From: a virus | Lineage: Duplodnaviria > Heunggongvirae > Uroviricota > Caudoviricetes | Length of the DNA stretch: 11,723 bases | IMG/VR virus record: IMGVR_UViG_2713896789_000019 | Coordinates: 1 to 11,723 of that record | Direction: 5' to 3' (one strand) | Shown here: positions 1 through 11,723 of the stretch, piece by piece | Numbering within the stretch: position 1 is the first letter of the stretch | Layout of the letters: the number at the start of each line of letters is the position of its first letter | Program-made: the position numbers and the translations under genes | Notes under the pieces: model-generated | Told to the model about the DNA's origin: nothing | The model's input: the letters and a program-made list of their open reading frames with translations, nothing else | The model's database searches: none

Positions 1-906
1 CTAGTCTCCTCTGTTTGCTTGAGAGGTAGTGTGACGGTAATGGACCAGATATTTACTAACAACAGCATCCCTGCACTGAGATATAACTTCACGAAGGGTA
101 ATATTCAGAGCATCGCATTTCAGGTTAAGCGGAATAGCAAGTTTTGAACCGGTTTTTTCCTGAGTAATGTGCAACATGTCGTCCCATATATCAGAGAATT
201 TCAAATTGCAGATATCGCCTAAACGTTGTCCAGTAACAAGAGCAAGTAGCATGCCGCATTTTAAATAGGGCTGCCGTCTGCTTACGCTTTCAAATATTGC
301 CTGCCATTCGAGCAGTGACAATCTTTGGCGGTTTACTCGATTTCGCGGTTGTTTTGTTGCCTGCGCAGGGTTAAATCCTGGCGGAACATGTCCTGCGTGT
401 TGTGCTTCTTTGAAGACGTCGATCAACACCATTCTCACGACTTGCGCCATCCTGTTATGACCTTCAGCCTTTACAGCATCAATTATTTCGGCAATATCAA
501 GTGCGGTAATATCCTTGAGGTGTTGCATTCCACAATGCTCACGGAAAAGACGAATGGGTTTGCCTTTTTGCCGATAGGAGTTGGGTCTTAGTTCATTATG
601 TTGCAGCCTGTCCTCCTGGATAGAAATATATTTATCAAGCCATTCTGTCACCGTAATGTCTGAGCGCCTGCCTTTCATTCTTTCCAGACGCTCATTGACG
701 CTTAATATTTGTCTGGTACGTTGTTCAGCAATAATGGTATTTGCTTCAGTAGCAACTTGTTTTGCTTCATTCTCATCAGTTCCTAAGCTATGAAAACGAC
801 CGGATAGTGGATGTTTGTATTGCCAATATACCTTTCCGGTTCGCTTATCTAATTTGCAATATAAATTGGGTATAGAGATTTTGTGAGATCGGGGTCTAGC
901 AGCCAT
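1..906 (-). CDS. intD: Prophage tyrosine integrase (lambda Int family); the ORF ends about 70 aa before the expected catalytic His-x-x-Arg / His / Tyr region, so it is probably truncated or continues out of frame beyond the window edge
   Basis: 301-aa ORF with ATG at 904-906 (minus). The translation aligns by eye with lambda Int through the Arg box (LALVTGQRLGDI vs lambda LAVVTGQRVGDL) and Lys box (QEKTGSKLAIP vs QSKTGVKIAIP). It ends at ...HYRHTTSQANRGD before any HxLR or catalytic Tyr. The stop codon TAG (rc of 1-3) sits exactly at the window edge. Symbol inferred from DLP12 context (emrE/ybcK downstream), not verified. Confidence 0.8.
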   Translation of the reverse strand: MAARPRSHKISIPNLYCKLDKRTGKVYWQYKHPLSGRFHSLGTDENEAKQVATEANTIIAEQRTRQILSVNERLERMKGRRSDITVTEWLDKYISIQEDRLQHNELRPNSYRQKGKPIRLFREHCGMQHLKDITALDIAEIIDAVKAEGHNRMAQVVRMVLIDVFKEAQHAGHVPPGFNPAQATKQPRNRVNRQRLSLLEWQAIFESVSRRQPYLKCGMLLALVTGQRLGDICNLKFSDIWDDMLHITQEKTGSKLAIPLNLKCDALNITLREVISQCRDAVVSKYLVHYRHTTSQANRGD

Positions 907-1132
907 CAGCGATTATCCGTTGGAGTTTTGGGTTTGCGTTTATTGGGAGTTGCGGTTCTGCAAGCGTTCCTACAAAACGGGAATTTCGGTCAATCATCCA
1001 GTAGCGACCAACTTTTATAGCGGGTGGGGCCATCATTTTCCCTTGCGCGTATTTTTTCAGAACTCGCTCACTTGGTGCTAAGTCCCCAAATTCTTCTTTA
1101 GCCCAGTCCTGTAAAGTGATTAGTCGAGACAT
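896..1132 (-). CDS. xis: Excisionase (lambda Xis-like)
   Basis: 78-aa ORF immediately upstream of int, overlapping the int start by 11 nt as in lambda xis-int. Strong SD AGGAGG 4 nt upstream of the ATG at 1130-1132 (minus). N-terminus MSRLITLQDWAKEE...PPAIKVGRYWM resembles lambda Xis (MYLTLQEWNAR...PPPVKDGREYLF). Confidence 0.8.
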   Translation of the reverse strand: MSRLITLQDWAKEEFGDLAPSERVLKKYAQGKMMAPPAIKVGRYWMIDRNSRFVGTLAEPQLPINANPKLQRIIADGC

Positions 1133-1271
1133 TTGTCCTCCTCTTAGCTGCTGAGGGAGTTTGTGACCGATATATCTGACATGATATTAAGCTCATGGCA
1201 GGTACATCTCTTGACTGGTCATAGAGATAAATTTAATGCTGAGTAATGCAGTATTGAATTTATCAATTTTT

Positions 1272-1511
1272 CTATTTCCTGCGTATGGCACGTAACTTCT
1301 TAATGTGTTCTGCCGTTTCGATCTCTTCTGCTATTCGATCTGCATCAGCTTTATTCACAGGTTCAAAGTCATGATTAAAGCGGAACATGCTGGCGATACA
1401 TGTTCTGCCTTTTCGGATGTAGTGAACTTTGTTGTGGGTAGAACGCAGGATTTTGCAGGGAGTGCCGTGGTGGTCGACGTACCAGGTGTTAGGAAAAATG
1501 ATTCTGAACAT
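1272..1511 (-). CDS. Hypothetical small basic protein (79 aa), His/Cys-containing; function unknown
   Basis: ORF with a good SD (GAGGTG, 5-nt spacer) before the ATG at 1509-1511 (minus). Same orientation as the upstream cargo genes and xis-int. No family recognised by eye. Confidence 0.45.
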   Translation of the reverse strand: MFRIIFPNTWYVDHHGTPCKILRSTHNKVHYIRKGRTCIASMFRFNHDFEPVNKADADRIAEEIETAEHIKKLRAIRRK

Positions 1512-1558
1512 TTTTACACCTCAGTTGGACGATGTTGAAATTTGCTGCTTTGAAGCCA

Positions 1559-1792
1559 TCACAGTCCCCATTGTTTGTTCTTAAGTTCGATCTCCTCCTG
1601 GCAACTTGCACAAGTCCGACAACCCTGAACGGCCAGGCGTCTTCGTTCATCTATNNNNNNNNNNNNNNNNNNNNNNNNNNNNNNNNNNNNNNNNNNNNNN
1701 NNNNTGAATTGTTGGTTAATACGCTTGAGGGTGAATGCGAATAATAAAAAAGGAGCCTGTAGCTCCATGATGATTTTGTTTTTCATGCTCAC
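1559..1792 (-). CDS. Hypothetical ORF interrupted by the N-gap; frame continuity and true length unknown
   Basis: ATG at 1784-1786 (minus) with AAGGAA 8 nt upstream, about 50 nt downstream of the DGQHR gene stop. The reading frame runs into the N run at 1655-1704. The C-terminal piece contains a CxxCxxC cluster (QGCRTCASCQEE). Confidence 0.25.
   Translation of the reverse strand: MSMKNKIIMELQAPFLLFAFTLKRINQQFXXXXXXXXXXXXXXXXXIDERRRLAVQGCRTCASCQEEIELKNKQWGL
1655..1704. other. Run of 50 N: assembly/scaffold gap or masked sequence of unknown true length
   Basis: Directly visible in the sequence. Confidence 0.99.
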
Positions 1793-1843
1793 CGTTCCTT
1801 AAAGACGCCGTACAGCATGCTGATATGAGACAATGTTGATTCA

Positions 1844-2908
1844 TTAAGTTGTTTCCAGACTTCCTTTGGTAAAAGCTTGTATCAGTCTGTTTGCTGCTGC
1901 TTTCTGCGCTGCCACATTGGCAATAACAGATAGTTTTTCCTGGCTGGCTTTCGTGCAGATCCCCGCCCAGTTATCCATCAGAAAAAAATCCTCTCTTTCT
2001 GCAGAGCTGGTAGTTGCACATAGTTTTTCGATCATAGAAGTTATTTCTGCGATGGAATGATTAACCATCATCTGTTGAACCGCAAAACCGAAAGCGTTAA
2101 TCATTACTCCATGGAACTGAATATAATCGCGCTTGTACGTAGCGTGGTGTACACCATGTCGGATTGAGTCAATCTGAGTTAGTGTAATCCATGCCTCCCA
2201 GACAGATTCTATATATCCCATTTCAAGTTGTTGATTGCCGTTCCTAGCGAACTTTGACGTTGCATCAGTGAGTGCCTTGAAACTCACCCACATATTACTT
2301 TTTAATGGCACTACGTTGTGTTCAAAATCGGTTATATCGGCAAATACAGTATGTTGGGTCAGGAAGGATATCATTCCCTGAGCAATATCATCCCGGCCGT
2401 TATACGCCATATTGATGGTCGCTGATGGCTTAGAAACGTTGTTATTTATGTCCGAAAAGAACTGCTGCCGGGTTTTTAGCGGCAGATTCATTGTAAGCAT
2501 CATGGGAACCATGAGCGTTGATGGGGAACTTCGGCAAAATATCTCAATGCCAGCTGCACGATGTTGACCATCAAAAAGTTTTATTTCGGCGTCGAGGGGA
2601 ATTCTGGCTATACCAACATTTGTGTTGCCAAACGGTACAAATTCTATATTCGAATCACAGTTACCTACGAGAGGGGGAATGATAAAAGGCTCATTTCTTG
2701 AGTCTGCGTTAGTGAGATAATTTAAAAATTTTCGTACTCGATTTGGATTAATTTCTCGCTGAGAGCGTTCCAGTGTATGGCCGTAATTATCTGAAGCGAG
2801 GAAACGAGCCAGCGATCTTCCTGGTATGGTAAGGAAGAGTGTAACAGTACCACCCTGTACACCTTGCGATGCCGGAAATTCGAATGAATGATTACCAACC
2901 TGACTCAT
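1844..2908 (-). CDS. DGQHR-motif protein, DndB-like (ParB/sulfiredoxin-type) family; standalone, no dndCDE-like genes nearby
   Basis: 354-aa ORF with a strong SD (AGGAGG, 4-nt spacer) before the ATG at 2906-2908 (minus). Contains the literal motif ...EIKLFDGQHRAAGIE... that names the DGQHR domain of DndB-type proteins. GC is visibly lower than the flanking lambda-like O/P genes. Confidence 0.8.
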   Translation of the reverse strand: MSQVGNHSFEFPASQGVQGGTVTLFLTIPGRSLARFLASDNYGHTLERSQREINPNRVRKFLNYLTNADSRNEPFIIPPLVGNCDSNIEFVPFGNTNVGIARIPLDAEIKLFDGQHRAAGIEIFCRSSPSTLMVPMMLTMNLPLKTRQQFFSDINNNVSKPSATINMAYNGRDDIAQGMISFLTQHTVFADITDFEHNVVPLKSNMWVSFKALTDATSKFARNGNQQLEMGYIESVWEAWITLTQIDSIRHGVHHATYKRDYIQFHGVMINAFGFAVQQMMVNHSIAEITSMIEKLCATTSSAEREDFFLMDNWAGICTKASQEKLSVIANVAAQKAAANRLIQAFTKGSLETT

Positions 2909-3016
2909 ATATCCTCCTGTTTGTTATTTATCTTCTCAGCCAGCCGCTGTGCTTTCAGTGGATTTCTGATAACAGAAAGGCCGGGAAATACCCAGCCTCG
3001 CTTTGTAATGGAGTAG

Positions 3017-3271
3017 ACGAAAGTGATCGCGCCTAACGATATCCGTCTGATGCGTGAACGTGATGGACGTAACCACCGCGACATGTGTGTACTGTTCCGC
3101 TGGGCCTGCCAGGACAACTTCTGGTCCGGTAACGTGCTGAGTCCGGCCAAACTCCGCGACAAGTGGACCCAGCTCGAAATCAACCGGAACAAGCAACAGG
3201 CTGGCGTGACAGTCGGCAAACCAAAACTCGACCTGACAAACACTGACTGGATTTACGGGGTGGATCTATGA
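3017..3271 (+). pseudogene. O: Replication initiator protein O, C-terminal fragment only (N-terminal origin-binding part absent)
   Basis: The frame opens after a TAG at 3014-3016. The translation ends ...SPAKLRDKWTQLEINRNKQQAGVTVGKPKLDLTNTDWIYGVDL, which matches the C-terminus of lambda O as I recall it. Its stop overlaps the P start (ATGA) as in lambda. Confidence 0.75.
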
Positions 3272-3969
3272 AAAACATCGCCGCACAGATGGTTAACTTT
3301 GACCGTGAGCAGATGCGTCGGATCGCCAACAACATGCCGGAACAGTACGACGAAAAGCCACAGGTACAGCAGGTAGCGCAGATCATCAACGGTGTGTTCA
3401 GCCAGTTACTGGCAACTTTCCCGGCGAGCCTGGCTAACCGTGACCAGAATGAACTGAACGAAATCCGCCGCCAGTGGGTGCTGGCTTTTCGGGAAAACGG
3501 GATCACCACAATGGAACAGGTTAACGCTGGAATGCGCGTAGCCCGTCGGCAGAATCGACCATTCCTGCCATCACCCGGGCAGTTTGTCGCCTGGTGCCGG
3601 GAAGAAGCATCCGTTACCGCCGGGCTGCCAAACGCCAGCGAGCTGGTTGATATGGTTTACGAGTATTGCCGGAAGCGCGGGCTGTATCCGGATGCAGAGT
3701 CTTATCCGTGGAAATCAAACGCGCACTACTGGCTGGTTACCAACCTGTATCAGAACATGCGGGCCAATGCGTTGACTGACGCGGAATTACGGCGCAAGGC
3801 TGCCGATGAACTGTCCTGTATGACCGCACGAATTAACCGTGGTGAGGCTATACCTGAACCAGTAAAACAACTTCCTGTCATGGGCGGTAGACCTCTAAAT
3901 CGTGCACAGGCTCTGGCGAAGATCGCAGAAATCAAAGCTAAGTTTGGGCTGAAAGGAGCAAGGGTATGA
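3268..3969 (+). CDS. P: Replication protein P (DnaB helicase loader), lambda-type, apparently full length (233 aa)
   Basis: The translation MKNIAAQMVNFDREQMRRIANNMPEQYDEKPQVQQVAQIINGVFSQLL...KAKFGLKGARV is near-identical to lambda P as recalled. Same O-P-ren synteny and overlapping stops/starts. Confidence 0.9.
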   Translation: MKNIAAQMVNFDREQMRRIANNMPEQYDEKPQVQQVAQIINGVFSQLLATFPASLANRDQNELNEIRRQWVLAFRENGITTMEQVNAGMRVARRQNRPFLPSPGQFVAWCREEASVTAGLPNASELVDMVYEYCRKRGLYPDAESYPWKSNAHYWLVTNLYQNMRANALTDAELRRKAADELSCMTARINRGEAIPEPVKQLPVMGGRPLNRAQALAKIAEIKAKFGLKGARV

Positions 3970-4268
3970 CGGGCAAAGAGTCAATTATTCATTACCTGGG
4001 GACTCATAAGAAATTCTGTGCGCAGGACGTTGCCGCGGTAACAGGCGCAACGGTAACCAGCATAAATCAGGCTGCGGCTAAAATGGCGCGGGCAGGAATC
4101 CTAGTCGTTGATGGTAAGGTCTGGCGAACGGTGTATTATCGGTTCGCTACCAGAGAAGAATGGGAAGGAAAGGTGAGCACGAATTTGATTTTTAAGGAGT
4201 GTCGCCAGAGTGCCGCGATGAAACGGGTATTGAGGGTATATAAAAGAACATCAATGGGTACACAATGA
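3966..4268 (+). CDS. ren: Ren protein (lambda ren-like, Rex-exclusion escape)
   Basis: 100-aa ORF MTGKESIIHYLGTHKKFCAQDVAAVTGATVTSINQAAAKMARAGILVVDGKVWRTVYYRFATREE..., closely similar to lambda Ren. Start overlaps the P stop (GTATGA). Confidence 0.85.
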   Translation: MTGKESIIHYLGTHKKFCAQDVAAVTGATVTSINQAAAKMARAGILVVDGKVWRTVYYRFATREEWEGKVSTNLIFKECRQSAAMKRVLRVYKRTSMGTQ

Positions 4269-4335
4269 TGAAACAGGTGAGTTGAGTTCAAACTGTAGTA
4301 CAATTCTCTCCAGTTTGAACAGGAAAGAATATGCT

Positions 4336-4668
4336 ATGAATCCTTATATTTATCTTGGTGGTGCAATACTTGCAGAGGTCATTGGTACAACCTTAATGAA
4401 GTTTTCAGAAGGTTTTACACGGTTATGGCCATCTGTTGGTACAATTATTTGTTATTGTGCATCATTCTGGTTATTAGCTCAGACGCTGGCTTATATTCCT
4501 ACAGGGATTGCTTATGCTATCTGGTCAGGAGTCGGTATTGTCCTGATTAGCTTACTATCATGGGGATTTTTCGGCCAACGGTTGGACCTGCCAGCCATTA
4601 TAGGCATGATGTTGATTTGTGCCGGTGTGTTGGTTATTAATTTATTGTCACGAAGCACACCACATTAA
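4336..4668 (+). CDS. emrE: Small multidrug resistance (SMR) family efflux transporter EmrE
   Basis: 110-aa product MNPYIYLGGAILAEVIGTTLMKFSEGFTRLWPSVGTIICYCASFWLLAQTLAYIPTGIAYAIWSGVGIVLISLLSWGFFGQRLDLPAIIGMMLICAGVLVINLLSRSTPH matches E. coli EmrE, including the essential Glu14 context and four TM segments. The ORF-track start at 4282 is an upstream in-frame extension; the real start is the ATG at 4336. Confidence 0.95.
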   Translation: MNPYIYLGGAILAEVIGTTLMKFSEGFTRLWPSVGTIICYCASFWLLAQTLAYIPTGIAYAIWSGVGIVLISLLSWGFFGQRLDLPAIIGMMLICAGVLVINLLSRSTPH

Positions 4669-4698
4669 AAATAATTTGTTTTTAAACGACTAAAATAT

Positions 4699-4737
4699 GG
4701 AGGCTCGTATATTTATATGGGCCTCGTTTTATGCTTT
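4699..4737 (+). terminator. Possible weak intrinsic terminator downstream of emrE
   Basis: Short GC stem (GAGGC ... GCCTC) followed by TTTTATGCTTTTT. The stem is short and the loop large, so this is weak. Confidence 0.3.
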
Positions 4738-4923
4738 TTGTTAATGTCTTTAGTTTTTATTCATTCTTTTGTGCTTTCAAGATTATGGTGTAAGAAAATT
4801 GCAATACGATTATTGTTGTATATTCAAGATAATGTGACCTTAATTGTCTTTTTAAATAAAAATTAAACAAAAATCATATCTCACCACTAAGGTTTATAAA
4901 AGCATACTTTAGCAGGTGTCACC

Positions 4924-6450
4924 ATGAAAAAAGCCATAGCATATATGCGATTTTCATCACCAAGTCAGATGTCTGGTGATTCATTAAACCGCCAGAGAAG
5001 GCTTATTACTGAATGGCTAAAGGTAAATAGTGATTATTACCTTGATACCGTAACGTATGAAGATTTGGGGTTAAGCGCATTCAATGGAAAGCATGCACAA
5101 TCAGGAGCTTTTTCGGAATTTTTAGATGCTATAGAACATGGTTATATATTGCCAGGGACTACATTGTTAGTTGAAAGTCTGGACAGACTTTCAAGAGAAA
5201 AAGTCGGTGAGGCGATTGAGCGTCTGAAATTGATTTTGAATCACGGTATTGATGTTATAACTCTTTGCGATAATACAGTCTATAATATTGACTCATTGAA
5301 TGAGCCATATTCATTAATAAAAGCCATACTTATAGCACAAAGGGCAAATGAAGAAAGCGAGATAAAGTCAAGTCGGGTTAAATTATCATGGAAGAAAAAA
5401 CGGCAGGATGCACTGGAGTCAGGCACGATTATGACGGCGTCTTGTCCGAGATGGCTCTCATTGGATGACAAAAGAACGGCTTTTGTTCCAGACCCCGACA
5501 GGGTGAAAACTATTGAGCTAATTTTTAAACTCAGGATGGAAAGGCGCTCATTGAATGCAATAGCCAAGTATTTAAATGATCATGCTGTAAAGAATTTCTC
5601 AGGAAAAGAAAGTGCATGGGGACCTTCTGTAATTGAAAAATTATTAGCGAATAAAGCTCTGATAGGTATATGCGTACCTTCATATCGTGCAAGAGGTAAA
5701 GGAATAAGTGAAATCGCTGGCTATTATCCCAGAGTCATATCAGATGATTTGTTTTACGCTGTGCAGGAAATTCGGTTGGCACCTTTTGGTATTAGCAATA
5801 GTAGCAAAAATCCTATGTTGATAAATCTACTTCGAACAGTTATGAAGTGCGAGGCTTGTGGTAATACCATGATTGTTCATGCGGTATCTGGAAGTTTGCA
5901 TGGCTATTATGTTTGTCCGATGAGAAGACTGCATCGATGTGACAGGCCATCAATAAAGAGAGATTTGGTTGATTATAATATCATTAATGAGTTGCTTTTT
6001 AATTGTAGTAAAATCCAACCAGTTGAAAACAAGAAAGATGCTAATGAAACTTTAGAGTTGAAAATTATTGAGCTCCAGATGAAAATTAATAATTTAATTG
6101 CTGCATTATCTGTTGCGCCTGAAGTTACCGCTATAGCAGAAAAAATCAGAGTATTAGATAAGGAATTACGAAGGGCTTCTGTATCATTAAAAACTTTGAA
6201 GAGTAAAGCGGTGAGTTCACTTGGTGATTTTCATGCTATTGACTTAACCAGTAAAAATGGGCGAGAGCTATGTCGTACACTTGCCTATAAAACATTCGAA
6301 AAAATCATAATCAATACAGATAATAAAACCTGTGATATCTATTTTATGAATGGCATTGTTTTTAAACACTATCCTTTAATGAAAACAATATCCGCCCAGC
6401 AGGCGATAAGTACTCTCAAATATATGGTTGATGGTGAGGTTTATTTTTGA
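4924..6450 (+). CDS. ybcK: Large serine recombinase (resolvase/invertase-type catalytic domain plus recombinase and zinc-ribbon domains)
   Basis: 508-aa ORF with SD AGGTG 5 nt upstream. N-terminus AIAYMRFSSPSQ fits the serine-recombinase catalytic motif (R-x-S-x-x-x-Q). A Cys cluster CEACGN...YYVCP...HRCD fits the zinc ribbon of large serine recombinases, and a coiled-coil-like segment follows. AT-rich gene next to emrE, as in DLP12. Confidence 0.85.
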   Translation: MKKAIAYMRFSSPSQMSGDSLNRQRRLITEWLKVNSDYYLDTVTYEDLGLSAFNGKHAQSGAFSEFLDAIEHGYILPGTTLLVESLDRLSREKVGEAIERLKLILNHGIDVITLCDNTVYNIDSLNEPYSLIKAILIAQRANEESEIKSSRVKLSWKKKRQDALESGTIMTASCPRWLSLDDKRTAFVPDPDRVKTIELIFKLRMERRSLNAIAKYLNDHAVKNFSGKESAWGPSVIEKLLANKALIGICVPSYRARGKGISEIAGYYPRVISDDLFYAVQEIRLAPFGISNSSKNPMLINLLRTVMKCEACGNTMIVHAVSGSLHGYYVCPMRRLHRCDRPSIKRDLVDYNIINELLFNCSKIQPVENKKDANETLELKIIELQMKINNLIAALSVAPEVTAIAEKIRVLDKELRRASVSLKTLKSKAVSSLGDFHAIDLTSKNGRELCRTLAYKTFEKIIINTDNKTCDIYFMNGIVFKHYPLMKTISAQQAISTLKYMVDGEVYF

Positions 6451-6561
6451 GTAATAATCACTTTTTCAACCGTGCTATAGTAAGAAAGTTAGGTAAGTAC
6501 AATAAAATTATCTATCCTGAACGAAGCGTCCTGAGCTATGGTTTTACTATAGGGACTGCCA

Positions 6562-6861
6562 ATGGATGCTGGCGTTCTCGTTCTAGCAGTTCAACAATAC
6601 CCAATCACAAAACAATTCACTGATAACAAACTTTGTGCACGTGCTTGGTTATGGCGAGCAGGTGATGTGATGTTAACTGCCTGCCAGAACGTTACTCCAC
6701 TACTTCAGGTTGCGGAGCACCGCGAAGCCGGCCGCTTTACTTCTATCGAGCAAGAATATCCCCAGATACTCAACAGAGCGCGAGCAATCCTCGCCAGAGA
6801 AACGGCACATGTAAAATTCCAGCCGTGGCTGGATGATAAGTGGAGTCGAGTGTTACCATAA
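6562..6861 (+). CDS. Hypothetical protein (99 aa), unknown function
   Basis: ORF followed by a hairpin plus T-tract terminator. No convincing SD before the ATG at 6562 and no recognisable family, so it may be a gene remnant. Confidence 0.4.
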   Translation: MDAGVLVLAVQQYPITKQFTDNKLCARAWLWRAGDVMLTACQNVTPLLQVAEHREAGRFTSIEQEYPQILNRARAILARETAHVKFQPWLDDKWSRVLP

Positions 6862-6904
6862 TTCCGTCAGAATCTGTTCCAATAAAGTCACTAGTTAGAA
6901 ATAC

Positions 6905-6943
6905 TGCCAGCATTCTACGATGACGGAAGTGCTGGCATTTTTT
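6905..6943 (+). terminator. Rho-independent terminator downstream of the 99-aa ORF
   Basis: Perfect 8-bp stem TGCCAGCA (6905-6912) / TGCTGGCA (6930-6937) followed by TTTTTT (6938-6943). Confidence 0.5.
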
Positions 6944-7061
6944 GGGTAATATGCGAGTCCATTTCATAAAATACGGGTGCTGTAAACTGGACGATATAAT
7001 CTAAAATATACCATTACCAGTAGCGTTCAAATCGCTATGTGCCGATACGGATAAAATTATA

Positions 7062-7090
7062 TTGATTGTGCACATACCTTATTGGATATT
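7062..7090 (+). promoter_or_regulatory. Putative sigma70 promoter for the 169-aa ORF
   Basis: TTGATT (7062-7067), 17-nt spacer, GATATT (7085-7090), about 30 nt upstream of the ORF. The -10 is imperfect; by-eye call only. Confidence 0.3.
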
Positions 7091-7119
7091 ACTGAGGGGT
7101 ATTTATATAAGGTGTAACG

Positions 7120-7629
7120 ATGATGTGGAACTTTGACAGTGCCGACTTAAGTGCAATAGCAGCAGGTATTTCTGCGTTTGGCACATTAGCCGCAGCGGGG
7201 TCGGCGCTTGCAAGTTGGTACACGTCAAAAAAAGCGCTGCAGCTACAAAATAGAGTTTACCTTTATGAGTCTTTAAAGGCTTGCGCTGAGAGAGCCAATT
7301 CATCAGCTAAAGATAAGCGCGGATCTGAATGGAGCGTTAATGATGCAGCGGATATCATCAGGTGCCTAGTACGGGCGATGGAGATCATCAAGCAGGATAG
7401 CCAGCAGAAAGAAGGTAATCAGGCATTAATGTTGAAACAGTACTTTGTTAATCTGCTAATAATGGAACTGTACGAGGAAGTTCATAACGGTGATGCGGCT
7501 GATTCTGTTTTTAAAAGTACGGAACCTACACAAGTACTTGATAACTTATGGAGCAAATGGCAGGAGGCTATAGCTTTTTTTGATATTTGGAATTACCCAG
7601 TTGCGACTGAGGAAGACTTGGCAGACTAA
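7120..7629 (+). CDS. Hypothetical protein with N-terminal membrane anchor (169 aa); orphan prophage cargo
   Basis: SD AAGGTG 5 nt before the ATG at 7120. Residues about 10-33 (LSAIAAGISAFGTLAAAGSALASWY) form a hydrophobic helix followed by a charged soluble domain. Located in an AT-rich block between its own upstream terminator and the NinB-like fragment. Confidence 0.6.
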   Translation: MMWNFDSADLSAIAAGISAFGTLAAAGSALASWYTSKKALQLQNRVYLYESLKACAERANSSAKDKRGSEWSVNDAADIIRCLVRAMEIIKQDSQQKEGNQALMLKQYFVNLLIMELYEEVHNGDAADSVFKSTEPTQVLDNLWSKWQEAIAFFDIWNYPVATEEDLAD

Positions 7630-7823
7630 TTTTCAGCACATTTGATTTCCAATAATCAACCAGCCATAATCATGCCATTGGGGCCTGAACAACTCCGGTG
7701 ACTTCTGCGCTAAACGGGGACGTTTATGCGCACATACAATCCAACCTCTCTTCTCCATTCACAGATGCAGAAATGCACCTGCGATATTTTGCATCCAGCG
7801 TTTGATCTCTGCGGAGGTGAAGC

Positions 7824-8078
7824 GTGAACCTCCCACAAGATGGTATCAAATTGCATCGCGGTAACTTCACCGCTATCGGTCGGCAGATCCAGCCTTATCT
7901 GGAGGACGGCAAATGCTTTCGCATGGTGCTTAAACCGTGGCGCGAGAGACGCAGTCTTTCCCAGAATGCACTCAGCCACATGTGGTACAGCGAAATCAGT
8001 GAATACCTCATCAGCAAGGGTAAAACGTTCGCCACTCCAGCTTGGGTATCCGCACCGGCGGGCGCGTGCTGGCGGTAA
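7824..8078 (+). pseudogene. ybcN: NinB-like (Orf-family recombination mediator) gene, 5' fragment only; reading frame continues out of frame into J-derived sequence
   Basis: GTG start with GGAGGTG SD. The translation carries the R-x-RSL-SQN-x-x-x-H-x-W signature (RERRSLSQNALSHMW), comparable to lambda NinB (ERNRSLDQNRKLWACL). After about 74 aa the frame reads [11 protein letters not shown], which is J sequence in the wrong frame. Symbol by position in a DLP12-like layout, unverified. Confidence 0.55.
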
Positions 8079-8872
8079 ACAGCCAGACCCGGACGCTGAC
8101 GCTCGACCGTGAAATCACGCTGCCATCTTCCGGCACCACGCTGATAAGCCTGGTTGACGGGCAGGGGAGTCCGGTCAGCGTGGAGGTTCAGTCCGTCACC
8201 GACGGCGTGAAGGTGAAAGTGAGCCGTGTTCCTGACGGCGTTGCTGAATACAGCGTATGGGGGCTGAAGCTGCCGACGTTGCGCCAGCGCCTGTTCCGCT
8301 GCGTGAGTATCCGTGAGAACGACGACGGCACGTATGCCATCACCGCCGTGCAGCATGTACCGGAAAAAGAGGCCATCGTGGATATTGAGAACACCCCTGA
8401 CGGCATGCAGAGTCAGGTGCTGCTGGCGGCGGACAGGATTGCGATGGTTAATCCTGCGAATGGCAACACAAAACCGATGTTTGTTGGTCAGGGCGATCAG
8501 ATATTCATGAACGACGTGTTCCTGAAACGCCTGACGGCCCCCACCATTACCAGCGGTGGAAATCCACCGGCATTTTCCCTGACACCGGACGGAAAGCTGA
8601 CCGCTAAAAATGCGGATATCAGTGGCAGTGTGAATGCGAACGCCGGGACGCTCAACAATGTCACGGTAAATGAAAACTGTACGATTAAGGGCATGCTGGA
8701 GGCGACTCAGGTCAGAGGTGACTTCGTTAAAGCTGTATCCAAATCATTCCCGAAACAGGCTGGTACGTGGGGTAATACGGAAACACCAAACGGGACGGTT
8801 ACAGTCACCATCAGCGATGATCATAACTTTGACCGTCAAATCATTATTCCGCCCATTATCTTTAACGGAATA
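8024..8872 (+). pseudogene. J: Tail tip / host specificity protein J, 3' fragment (lambda J-like), lacking the N-terminal part and probably an internal segment
   Basis: The frame opens after a TAA at 8021-8023. The translation [31 protein letters not shown]...[53 protein letters not shown] and later [48 protein letters not shown] closely match two parts of lambda J as recalled. Homology ends near 8870 and the frame then reads stf sequence out of frame until a stop at 9010. Confidence 0.8.
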
Positions 8873-8873
8873 G

Positions 8874-11723
8874 CGTATAGCGATCCGGGAAGTGGTAATA
8901 ACCGATGCTGCAGGCTCAGCACGTGCCGCCAGCACGTCAGCCGGACAGGCCGCGTCGTCGGCTCAGTCAGCGTCTTCCAGCGCAGGAACGGCATCGACAA
9001 AGGCCCGTGAAGCAGCAAAAAGTGCTGCTGCTGCAGAGTCCTCAAAAAGCGCGGCAGCTACCAGTGCCGGTGCGGCGAAAACGTCAGAAACGAATGCGGC
9101 AGCGTCACAACAATCAGCAGCCACTTCTGCATCCGCCGCGACCACGAAGGCGTCAGAAGCAGCCACCTCAGCCCGGGATGCGGCGGCCTCAAAAGAGGCA
9201 GCGAAATCATCAGAAACGAACGCATCATCAAGCGCCAGTAGTGCCGCTTCCTCGGCAACGGCGGCAGGCAATTCCGCGAAGGCGGCAAAGACGTCTGAGA
9301 CAAACGCCAGGTCTTCTGAAACGGCAGCGGGACAGAGCGCCTCGGCTGCGGCAGGCTCAAAAACAGCGGCTGCGTCGTCTGCCAGTGCCGCGTCAACAAG
9401 TGCCGGGCAGGCCTCAGCCAGTGCCACCGCCGCCGGAAAATCGGCAGAAAGCGCCGCATCGTCTGCTTCAACAGCCACAACGAAGGCTGGCGAAGCCGCT
9501 GAACAGGCCAGCGCAGCAGCGAGGTCTGCATCCGCAGCGAAGACATCCGAAACGAACGCGAAAGCCTCGGAAACCAGTGCAGAATCCTCAAAAATGGCAG
9601 CTGCATCGTCCGCCAGTTCGGCGGCGTCATCGGCATCATCTGCGTCTGCTTCAAAAGATGAGGCGAGCAGACAGGCATCAGCAGCGAAAGGCAGCGCCAC
9701 GACAGCATCCACGAAGGCGACAGAGGCAGCTGGCAGTGCGACGGCGGCATCTCAGAGCAAAACTACTGCTGAATCCGCTGCGACCCGTGCGGAAGCTGCT
9801 GCTGATCGTGCTGAAGAGATTGCCGGTGCAGTTGCGATGGAAGACGCAAGCCTTACAACTAAAGGTGTTGTGAAACTTAGCAGTGCTGTTGATAGCACCA
9901 GTGAATCGCTGGCCGCAACGCCAAAAGCAGTTAAAGCAGCCAATGACAATGCGAATAGCAGGGTGCCATCTAACCGAAAAGTTAACGGAAAAGCACTGAC
10001 TGCGGATATAACATTAACGCCGAAAGATATTGGTACTTTAAATTCAGTAACGATGTCTTTCTCTGGCGGGGCTGGGTGGTTCAAACTGGCTACGGTTACC
10101 ATGCCACAAGCGAGTTCCATCGTTTACATCGCATTGATTGGTGGCGCTGGTTACAACGTCGGTTCCCCACATCAGGCAGGCATTTCAGAACTGGTTCTAC
10201 GAGCAGGCAATGGAAACCCCAAAGGAATTACCGGGGCTTTGTGGAAGCGTACAGCCGTCGGATTAACGAATTTCGCCTGGATCAACACATCCGGCGATAC
10301 ATATGATATTTACGTTGAGATTGGCAATTATGCGACGAGTGTAAATATCCATTGGGATTGTACTGCAAATGCGTCAGTTTCTGTTTATACCTCGCCAACA
10401 TATTCAGCGAGTAAGCCTTCCAGCGTTACCTATGGTGTTGTTTATACGATGTATAGCTCACATCAGAAACCTACACCATCAGATATTGGAGCACTGCCAA
10501 CAACCGGAGGAACAGTTTCAGGTCCGTTGTCTGTTACAGGTGGATTAACTGGTTCATTGAATGGTAATGCAAGTACAGCCACGAAATTGCAGACGGCAAG
10601 ATCTATCGGTGGAGTTGTTTTCGACGGTTCTGCAAATATTAACCTTCCAGGTGTAAACACTACGGGTAATCAGAACACCACTGGTAATGCTGCAACTGCT
10701 ACAAAACTCCAGACTGCAAGAAAAATATCCGGTGTTCCATTTGATGGTTCCAAAGATATTACTTTAACCGCCGCGCATGTGGCTGCTTTTGCCAGAAGGG
10801 CAACGGATACATATGCCGATGCGGATGGTGGCGTTCCCTGGAATGCCGAATCAGGCGCTTACAATGTCACCCGCTCTGGCGACAGCTATATTCTGGTTAA
10901 CTTCTATACCGGAGTCGGAAGTTGCCGGACCCTGCAGATGAAGGCGCATTACAGAAATGGTGGTCTGTTCTACCGTTCTTCAAGAGACGGTTATGGTTTT
11001 GAGGAAGGCTGGGCAGAAGTTTATACCTCGAAAAATCTTCCACCAGAAAGCTACCCAGTCGGCGCACCAATCCCGTGGCCATCAGATACCGTTCCGTCTG
11101 GTTATGCCCTGATGCAGGGGCAGACTTTTGACAAATCTGCTTACCCGAAACTTGCAGCCGCTTATCCGTCAGGCGTGATCCCTGATATGCGTGGCTGGAC
11201 GATTAAGGGCAAACCTGCCAGTGGTCGGGCCGTATTGTCTCAGGAACAGGACGGCATTAAATCGCACACCCACAGCGCCAGCGCATCCAGTACGGATTTG
11301 GGGACGAAAACCACATCGTCGTTTGATTACGGAACCAAATCCACGAATAACACCGGGGCGCATACCCATAGTATTAGCGGGACCGCAAATAGTGCCGGTG
11401 CGCACCAACACAAGAGTTCCGGTGCATTTGGTGGCACGAACACGAGCATTTTCCCTAATGGTTATACCGCGATTTCAAATCTAAGCGCGGGGATTATGAG
11501 CACAACAAGCGGTAGTGGCCAGACTCGTAATGCAGGGAAGACATCATCAGATGGTGCTCATACCCACTCGCTGTCCGGCACTGCTGCAAGCGCAGGCGCA
11601 CATGCACATACTGTCGGTATTGGTGCTCATACGCACTCCGTTGCGATTGGCTCACACGGACACACCATCACCGTTAACGCTGCTGGTAACGCGGAAAACA
11701 CCGTCAAAAACATCGCATTTAAC
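8874..11723 (+). CDS. stf: Side tail fibre protein (lambda Stf / StfR-like), 5'-truncated and running off the 3' end of the window
   Basis: The frame opens after a TAG at 8871-8873 and stays open to the window end (950 codons). The translation ...[21 protein letters not shown]...[21 protein letters not shown]...LAATPKAVK... and the C-terminal [71 protein letters not shown]...[25 protein letters not shown] matches lambda/Rac side tail fibre including the His-rich GAHxHS repeats. The first possible start is the GTG at 8892. Not in the ORF track because there is no in-window stop. Confidence 0.85.
9000..9760 (+). repeat. Low-complexity Ala/Ser/Thr-rich coding repeats within stf (at least four copies of K-[TS]-SETNA plus degenerate ASxASxA units)
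   Basis: Repeated nucleotide units such as aaaacgtcagaaacgaatgcggc / aaatcatcagaaacgaacgcatc / aagacgtctgagacaaacgccag / aagacatccgaaacgaacgcgaa. GC-rich GCN/TCN codon runs create long stop-free frames on both strands. Confidence 0.7.
10560..10770 (+). repeat. Two tandem copies of a roughly 36-aa tail-fibre repeat unit (GN[AS][10 protein letters not shown].I.GV.FDGS..I.L) inside stf
   Basis: Translation [29 protein letters not shown] ... [29 protein letters not shown]; the nucleotide units are about 120 bp apart. Confidence 0.6.

Follow-up and report, generated by a model that had tools for sequence, protein, structure and literature searches.

In bacteriophage lambda the genes from the exonuclease to the integrase are arranged in the order exo–orf60a (DUF1317)–orf63 (DUF1382)–orf61–orf73–ea22–ea8.5–orf55–xis–int (PMC8614690). 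One product of this region, Orf73, is a homologue of TraR, and was shown in vitro and in vivo to bind RNA polymerase and to inhibit rRNA promoters; it inhibits, in vitro, the promoters rrnB P1 and rpsT P2, with a half-maximal inhibitory concentration of about 50 nM for rrnB P1, slows the growth of the host, and increases the phage yield 3–4 fold (PMC9239242). Two other described proteins are relevant here. DndB binds DNA and regulates the level of phosphorothioate modification (PMC4507180), and a repressor role has also been assigned to it (bioRxiv 2025.10.10.680097). RgdR of enterohaemorrhagic Escherichia coli (EHEC), the one studied member of the DUF4222 family, is encoded by a prophage, regulates type III secretion and motility, and binds DNA weakly and non-specifically (PMC3378721). 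Here we describe a segment of the virus record IMGVR_UViG_2713896789_000019, in which relatives of these three proteins are encoded on one strand. The whole stretch of DNA that was analyzed, 11,723 nt in length, is further called the window; its positions 1272–2908, which an earlier note had read as a possible three-gene cargo operon, were followed up and extended to 1272–3035. The data suggest, with a probability of roughly 80%, that this segment is the exo–xis accessory region of a decayed lambda-like E. coli prophage of the type adjoining icd, and that it consists of three exchangeable modules, which belong to one pL transcript when the phage is intact. The region itself is already known lambda biology.

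Mosaic structure of the exo–xis region

The genome of E. coli FORC 064 (locus L001) was used as the reference; it matched window positions 1–1654 at 99.88% identity and positions 1705–3035 (L001 6660–7990) at 100% identity. The gene order in its annotation is icd / int–xis–DUF4222–TraR/DksA (72 aa)–DGQHR–DUF1317–lambda exonuclease, with the DUF1317 gene at L001 7860–8018. The mosaic breakpoints were determined by blastn comparison of the window with lambda and three other E. coli prophages. The data showed that the sequence at 2906–3035 is that of orf60a, which is 92–98% identical to lambda and other prophages, and that positions 1582–1654 together with 1705–1824, which contain orf73 and its upstream region, are 92–94% identical to lambda (92.5% for 1705–1824 alone). 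The stretch from 1282 to 1654 was common only to prophages with DUF4222, and the stretch from 1825 to 2905, which is approximately the DGQHR open reading frame (ORF) alone, was not matched by anything in lambda or the three other prophages. Hence, the breakpoints fall between the three genes, which define three independent mosaic blocks, and only the DGQHR ORF is a variable cassette.

The segment shares with lambda and the Stx phages its position between exo and xis, its strand, the flanking orf60a (92% identity in nucleotides) and orf73 (90% identity in protein), as well as the predicted terminators t1 and t2 and the predicted promoter p1. It differs from lambda in that one DGQHR gene exactly replaces orf63 and orf61, that a DUF4222 gene is present instead of ea22, ea8.5, and orf55, and that exo has been deleted together with pL and the remainder of the early-left operon. 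The slot occupied by the DGQHR gene contains DUF1382 and a small gene in APEC IMT5155 and in strain 2003-3014, and a Dam-family methyltransferase gene and a small gene in strain 2012C-4431. The ATG of the DGQHR gene overlaps the stop codon of orf60a (ATGA), and the alternative genes of this slot overlap orf60a likewise. A second insertion was seen in APEC IMT5155, where an ASCH gene is located between orf73 and DUF4222. The DUF4222 gene belongs to the backbone of the exo–xis region, in its xis-proximal part. The GC content of the DGQHR cassette is 42–44%, as it is in the equally AT-rich orf73, DUF4222, and xis, while that of exo is 52–54%; a foreign base composition of the cassette was considered and rejected, because its GC content differs from that of exo only.

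A hairpin scan compared with the published predictions (PMC4195576) showed that the hairpin at 2977–2999 is the predicted terminator t1 of lambda and phi24B, and that the hairpin at 1752–1766 corresponds, with one mismatch, to their predicted terminator t2 (Tables 3/4 of PMC4195576). The predicted promoter p1 (−35 TCATCA, −10 TTTTATTAT) overlaps t2, and this t2/p1 feature belongs to the conserved orf73-upstream block 1705–1824, which is located between the DGQHR gene and orf73. In lambda, the genes downstream of t2 have lower mRNA levels (PMC4195576). In an intact phage, all genes of the segment would be read from pL with N antitermination within one long early transcript. The co-transcription with xis–int that was proposed in the earlier note is plausible for the intact phage, because in intact lambdoid phages all these genes lie in the long pL early-left transcript (PMC4195576, PMC9239242), but t2/p1 separates the DGQHR gene from orf73. 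In the window pL, N, and all upstream early-left genes are absent, and the deletion of pL, N, and exo leaves the DGQHR gene without a recognizable native promoter; a promoter scan found sigma-70-like sites no more frequently than in shuffled sequence, and none upstream of the DGQHR gene. The DGQHR gene of this window is probably silent or weakly expressed, while orf73–DUF4222–xis could be read from p1, if this predicted promoter is real.

Table 1. Features at the left end of the window, with positions numbered from its first nucleotide
Feature	Position	Strand	Basis or remark
int, lambda-type integrase	1–906	−	PF09003, PF00589
xis, excisionase	896–1132	−	PF07825 Exc, E 6.7e-06; 100% identical to WP_000088653.1 'excisionase' of FORC 064
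DUF4222 protein, 79 aa	1272–1511	−	PF13973, E 1.4e-19, residues 3–53
orf73 orthologue, 3′ end (last 31 codons and stop)	1559–1654	−	TraR/DksA-family C4 zinc finger
Assembly gap, 50 N	1655–1704		
t2/p1 feature	1741–1773	−	terminator-like hairpin GGAGCTACAGGCTCC followed by a T-run (1752–1766)
DGQHR-domain (DndB-like) protein, 354 aa	1844–2908	−	PF14072, E 3.8e-46; WP_000084449.1
orf60a (DUF1317) remnant, first 28 nt missing	2905–3035	−	contains hairpin t1 (2977–2999)
Deletion junction	3034–3035		orf60a′ meets a C-terminal fragment of replication gene O (+ strand)

The assembly gap and the linkage of the three genes

To read the middle gene of the segment, the window was aligned with FORC 064 using blastn coordinates. 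The 50 N of the gap replace 137 nt of FORC 064 at L001 6523–6659, which in near-identical genomes comprise 123 nt of the 5′ coding part of orf73 and 14 nt upstream of it. The FORC 064 gene at this place (L001 6427–6645) encodes a 72-aa TraR/DksA protein. In the window orf73 ends at position 1559, its ATG and first 41 codons are within the gap, and the readable part corresponds to residues 42–72. The 77-aa ORF at 1559–1792, which the earlier note had taken as the middle gene of the operon, is an artefact of reading through the gap, in which the last 31 codons of orf73 are fused to non-coding DNA. Its supposed N-terminal half (1705–1792) lies within positions 1705–1843, which by comparison with FORC 064 are non-coding sequence upstream of the orf73 ATG. 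Of the three minus-strand ORFs, those at 1272–1511 and 1844–2908 are real and co-oriented with xis and int. Shine–Dalgarno sequences are present before the DGQHR ATG (AGGAGG) and the DUF4222 ATG (GAGG). The spacing of about 50 nt between the DGQHR stop and the next start was not retained either: once the gap is filled from FORC 064 the distance to the true next start is 153 nt, with a terminator-like hairpin inside, and 47 nt separate the orf73 stop from the DUF4222 start.

The earlier note had allowed that the gap might hide a mobile element or stop codons that break the middle ORF. By the FORC 064 comparison the gap indeed conceals something that breaks the ORF as read, which is the real start codon of a shorter gene. 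An insertion sequence (IS) or a rearrangement, which would disrupt orf73 in this particular genome, appears improbable. Insertions of IS3 and IS1 were seen in two relatives (H1 and H22), but both flanks of the gap equal FORC 064 right to the gap edges, and the exact figure of 50 N suggests that the run stands for an unknown length. In addition, orf73 is a repeated sequence with up to seven matching places per genome, which is enough to explain a break at this place in a short-read assembly.

The FORC 064 copy of Orf73 is identical to lambda Orf73, whose gene product is unannotated in lambda, in 65 of the 72 residues (90%), and it matched phrog_54 'DksA-like zinc-finger protein' with an E value of 1.2e-25. 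The match of the window fragment to zf-dskA_traR (23.0 bits versus a cut-off of 24.9) is just below the threshold because the fragment is truncated; with TIGR02419 the full FORC 064 protein scored 54.4 bits, below the cut-off of 59.7. The assignment to the TraR/Orf73 family rests on the 90% identity to the experimentally studied lambda protein. The FORC 064 copy shares with lambda Orf73 and F-plasmid TraR the DxxDxA N-terminus (D3-I-I-D6-S-A8), the corresponding part of which lies inside the gap in the window, as well as the C4 finger (C35-x2-C38-x17-C56-x2-C59), and it has the two extra Orf73-type cysteines. It differs from lambda Orf73 in the C-terminal approximately eight residues (…EEIELKNKQWGL against …EDLELISKQRGSK). 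Of the six cysteines in lambda Orf73, four make up the CxxC-x17-CxxC finger (PMC9239242). The CxxCxxC cluster described in the earlier note is visible as C53, C56, and C59, the only ones that the window shows, but it represents the second half of the Orf73 C4 finger plus one extra cysteine (PMC9239242). The suggestion that it marks a nucleic-acid-binding partner has to be replaced, as the lambda orthologue is an RNA polymerase binder. Judged from the identity to lambda Orf73, the protein would occupy the secondary channel of RNA polymerase and shut off the rRNA and ribosomal-protein promoters, which would favor phage production. A PADLOC match of Orf73 to a type II methyl-directed restriction endonuclease model (E 0.005) was judged to be noise.

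To analyze the linkage of the three genes, their prevalence was determined by megablast in 5426 complete E. coli genomes, with window positions 1133–3022 used for whole-block matches. Some part of the segment was present in 3430 genomes and the DUF4222 gene in 2347 (43%), while the DGQHR gene was found in 284 (5%), and every copy of it was at least 99% identical. The whole block was present in 263 genomes, with 99.7–99.9% identity among the matches listed. On the other side, about 2000 or more genomes contained orf73 and DUF4222 without the DGQHR gene.

The neighborhoods of DGQHR homologues were compared in 31 loci outside the window and the FORC 064 allele, using 22 species-representative genomes (one of them, L009, being a copy of the E. 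coli allele), three phages, and seven exact-protein look-ups. In none of the 31 loci did orf73 and DUF4222 directly follow the DGQHR gene. Their homologues were located 2.2–3.6 kb downstream, behind other genes, in L011 and L012, which are two Enterobacteriaceae prophages, and were absent near the DGQHR gene in the rest of the 31 loci. In Superficieibacter (L013) the DGQHR gene directly abuts xis–int. The co-occurrence of the three proteins, which had been suggested as a check of the operon, is thus limited, as direct adjacency, to the identical E. coli allele.

These data leave hardly any room for the proposal that the DGQHR protein, the Cys-cluster protein, and the basic 79-aa protein form a dedicated multi-component operon system, and this proposal is largely refuted. 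It could draw on the adjacency of the genes on one strand in 263 of the 284 DGQHR-positive E. coli genomes and on the looser arrangement in L011 and L012. However, because all copies are at least 99% identical, the adjacency reflects one recently spread inherited block; besides the numerous genomes with orf73 and DUF4222 alone and the lack of direct succession elsewhere, the breakpoints fall exactly between the three genes, the ASCH gene separates two of them in APEC IMT5155, and the t2/p1 block parts the DGQHR gene from orf73. Moreover, Orf73 has its own established target, RNA polymerase, and both it and DUF4222 are of backbone nature. Since the DGQHR neighbors vary, and none of the 31 loci has orf73 and DUF4222 next to it, there is no dedicated three-component system.

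Three points weigh against reading the segment as an accessory region of exchangeable modules. The t2 and p1 elements are predictions, which are indirectly backed by the lambda and phi24B expression data. The gap cannot be read in this genome, and the insertions in H1 and H22 show what has happened in relatives. Finally, the adjacency of the three genes in most DGQHR-positive genomes, taken alone, looks like linkage.

The DUF4222 protein was compared with RgdR (ECs1581 of EHEC O157:H7). Both are small, basic, prophage-encoded proteins that match PF13973 (E 2.1e-23 for RgdR itself), but the identity is only 30% over 47 residues, and RgdR is encoded on a P4-like element rather than in the exo–xis region. 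The RGD tripeptide, which RgdR needs to activate type III secretion (PMC3378721), is absent from the window protein, where BLASTP places P7-N8-T9 opposite residues 20–22 of RgdR, and residue 24 of RgdR aligns with residue 11 of the window protein. The AlphaFold2 model, with a predicted local distance difference test (pLDDT) score of 87.9, consists of a five-stranded SH3/Tudor-like barrel followed by a long C-terminal helix. PADLOC gave no defence-model match for either the DUF4222 or the DUF1317 protein. A role of the DUF4222 protein as a modulator of host transcription is plausible, but the indications for it are weak.

The DGQHR protein and its genomic contexts

The QR, DGQHR, and FxxxN motifs define the DGQHR domain, which has been assigned to the ParB/Srx fold (PMC4619093). 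The window protein contains them as Q50-R51, D113-G-Q-H-R117, and F151-S-D-I-N155, and they are invariant in 34 homologues of 52–73% identity. It has these motifs in common with DndB, as well as with DpdB, GmrS, and the N-terminal domain of SspE, i.e., with the DGQHR/DUF262 ParB-Srx NTPases. The protein matched the Pfam DndB model PF14072 with 158.2 bits against a cut-off of 29.1, and the TIGR03187 DGQHR model with 188.8 bits against a cut-off of 58.85, and it belongs to phrog_7901 (E 7e-216), a family without an assigned function. The AlphaFold2 model (pLDDT 78.8) is mixed alpha/beta in its N-terminal half and entirely helical in its C-terminal half. The spans of the Pfam match (residues 11–286) and of the sub-cut-off DndB equivalog match (residues 8–302) indicate that the likeness to DndB reaches into the helical half. 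Searches of the PDB by sequence, with the single protein and with a 34-sequence profile, gave no meaningful match, and Foldseek found nothing in the PDB at E <= 0.001.

It is very improbable that the protein is a true DndB, which would regulate a dnd cluster elsewhere in the host, or serve as a phage tool for mis-regulating the host dnd operon. The Pfam match and the PADLOC match to DndB (E 4.3e-37), together with the known role of DndB as a DNA-binding regulator of phosphorothioation, could suggest such a function. However, the TIGR03233 DndB equivalog score of 106.9 bits is far below the cut-off of 328, and no dndC, dndD, or dndE was present in the window, in 30 of the 31 homologue loci, or beside any homologue that is at least 30% identical; a DndC-like neighbor was seen only at the Halobacteriovorax locus L030, where the homologue is 25% identical. 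The DGQHR protein also differs from DndB in the lack of linkage to dndCDE and of a nuclease domain such as DUF1524/HNH, and its gene travels with temperate phages and, in a 40%-identical branch, with conjugative plasmids, not with dnd clusters.

The contexts of the DGQHR homologues provided a different picture. The close homologues were always located in the early-left arm of temperate phages, with DUF1317 upstream in six loci. An MT-A70 methyltransferase gene adjoins the homologue in SPN1S, L016, L019, and L038, and is one gene away in L012, while a C5 methyltransferase gene adjoins it in a Vibrio phage. The SPN1S homologue is SPN1S_0033. Other immediate neighbors were Ea22, DUF550, an HNH-like protein, a dATP/dGTP pyrophosphohydrolase with Lar, and small genes. 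In Buttiauxella, Dryocola, and Pseudescherichia elements, ArdA and PsiA flank the gene of the approximately 40%-identical branch of 438-aa proteins, and KlcA/ArdB follows further downstream. Using tblastn, homologues were detected on 1071 plasmids, 885 of which are conjugative; the family is also present in 44 phage records. The IncL/M plasmid pCTXM360 (L040) carries an intact 427-aa DGQHR gene amid JAB/RadC, DUF4942, Hha, an antirestriction protein, and ssb. A methyltransferase as an obligate partner of the DGQHR protein was considered and rejected, because it is adjacent in only 4–5 of the approximately 19 close loci, and neither the E. coli allele nor the 84-kb Vibrio phages have one.

A DndB-like protein has been shown to bind ATP and GTP, and fusions of the ParB fold with methyltransferases are enriched in prophages (bioRxiv 2025.10.10.680097), while anti-defence islands are enriched in anti-defence genes and orphan methyltransferases (PMC11541004). 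The DGQHR contexts fit both reported enrichments. They resemble the ParB-fold/methyltransferase pairings in the MT-A70 or C5 methyltransferases that stand beside the homologues in several phages, and they resemble the orphan methyltransferases of plasmid leading regions in the company of ArdA, KlcA, PsiA, and ssb on conjugative elements. They differ in that the DGQHR protein is separate and not a fusion, and in that the E. coli allele has no adjacent methyltransferase.

We tentatively propose, from the gene neighborhoods only, that the DGQHR protein might have an early-acting, NTP-dependent DNA-binding role in helping incoming DNA to escape restriction. An early-acting anti-restriction role is favored because of the position in the early-left arm, in a slot that elsewhere holds a Dam-family gene, the methyltransferase neighbors, and the ArdA/PsiA/KlcA/ssb islands. 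As a stand-alone protein of the putative ParB/Srx fold, it would bind nucleoside triphosphate (NTP) and DNA early after entry or induction, and would help the DNA of the element to evade host restriction, alone or together with a methyltransferase. A possible mode is NTP-dependent loading on the incoming DNA, which could shield the DNA or recruit a methyltransferase. More speculatively, and with a good chance of being wrong, the stand-alone DGQHR proteins of mobile elements, encoded in the early-left operon of temperate enterobacterial and Vibrio phages, often next to orphan methyltransferases, and in islands of conjugative plasmids (IncL/M included) that resemble leading regions with anti-defence genes, could constitute a widespread, unrecognized class of early-expressed establishment or counter-defence factors, of which the E. 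coli cassette would be one member. One observation counts against these proposals: the methyltransferase adjacency is limited to about one quarter of the close homologues, with none at the E. coli allele. The papers found on DGQHR, DndB-like, and DUF4222 proteins contain no description of the phage or plasmid DGQHR subfamily, and the supplements of Samuel et al. 2024 list a seven-member DGQHR family without attaching a claim to it.

The opposite role, in which the DGQHR gene would be an anti-phage defence or abortive infection (Abi) gene of the prophage, seems doubtful. The protein would then combine a ParB-like NTPase sensor with a HEPN-like effector, and be related to DUF262/GmrSD, BrxU, and SspE. 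Such a role would agree with the description of DndB as a ParB-like domain joined to a HEPN domain, in a family linked to Abi genes (Makarova et al. 2013, PMC3632139), with the DGQHR and DGQQR motifs common to GmrS/DUF262 restriction proteins (PMC4619093), and with the fact that the gene stays intact in decayed prophages. The all-helical C-terminal half could also be taken as HEPN-like, as it contains the motif K259-R260-x5-H266 with an invariant H266; residue 260, however, is R in only 26 of the 34 homologues and K in 8, no HEPN Pfam domain was found in the protein, and no nuclease domain is recognizable. PADLOC reported the DndB model only. The gene does not occupy a lysogen-expressed slot but is part of the pL early-left operon, a target of repression in lysogens, and the antirestriction, SOS-inhibition, and ssb genes next to the plasmid homologues form an anti-defence context and not a defence one.

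Some further observations were made on the homologous loci. A 42%-identical DGQHR gene is present on hundreds of conjugative enterobacterial plasmids, including H170–H182 (63.4–115 kb, Klebsiella/Enterobacter), and IS1B interrupts it in many plasmids with a size of about 63.6 kb. In several of the Klebsiella and Salmonella prophages L004 and L032–L036 an HTH_ParB (Spo0J-like) protein of 260–346 aa is encoded just upstream of the DGQHR gene, so that two different putative ParB-fold proteins are side by side. The locus L009 (JAEWTL010000063.1), a 5.5-kb contig of a 'Bacillota bacterium' metagenome-assembled genome, contains exo–orf60a–DGQHR–orf73–DUF4222 at 98–100% identity to E. coli, and is most likely an E. 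coli contig mis-binned into this genome.

State of the prophage copy and implications

The comparison with FORC 064 also showed how far this prophage copy has decayed. Window positions 1–3 read CTA instead of CTG, which on the coding strand gives TAG instead of CAG, and shortens int to 301 aa compared with 380 aa. The integrase should be without its C-terminal catalytic part, and with this truncation the prophage is probably locked in place. At the other end of the segment, the blastn comparison showed that 677 bp (exo together with the first 28 nt of orf60a) are missing from the window, and that positions 3034–3366 correspond to L001 8668–9000. The 3034–3035 junction was not present in one piece among the complete E. 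coli genomes listed.

FORC 064 lacks 8.2 kb that the window has kept (3367–11615), between a P fragment and a tail-fibre fragment, and window positions 11616–11723 correspond to L001 8997–9104. The two copies share the inversion-type junction from exo/orf60a to O′. The window and FORC 064 represent one prophage that has decayed in two different ways.

The window region 3658–6489, which contains the 3′ part of P along with ren, emrE, and ybcK (a serine recombinase gene), is 94–96% identical to the cryptic DLP12 prophage of K-12, without the IS3 that splits renD there, while the left arm has the integrase type that adjoins icd in FORC 064. The element seems to be a hybrid between prophages of the e14-site and DLP12 types. 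On the plus strand from about 8900 to 11723 a frame of more than 940 codons is open and runs off the end of the window, with Ala/Ser-rich repeats and HxH repeats of the kind that is usual in side tail fibres. Over about 8900–9870, the three forward frames and some of the reverse ones all stay open, which explains the many spurious ORFs listed there. The deletion junction also created a minus-strand ORF of 112 aa (2905–3243), which leads from sequence antisense to the O′ fragment into what is left of orf60a and almost certainly does not represent a gene.

The segment is a cautionary case, in which an ORF drawn through an N gap joined the 3′ end of the well-known orf73 with non-coding DNA, and in which adjacency inside one clonal prophage block was mistaken for a system. 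The sole lead from the region is the DGQHR cassette, which is uncharacterized but already annotated. Its family recurs where phages and plasmids keep their anti-restriction genes, while its tested function is confined to dnd clusters. Should the DGQHR protein turn out to act as a helper in counter-defence or DNA modification, it would represent a new ParB-fold mechanism in the toolkit that mobile elements use for entry, and the elements concerned would include plasmid families that spread carbapenemases.

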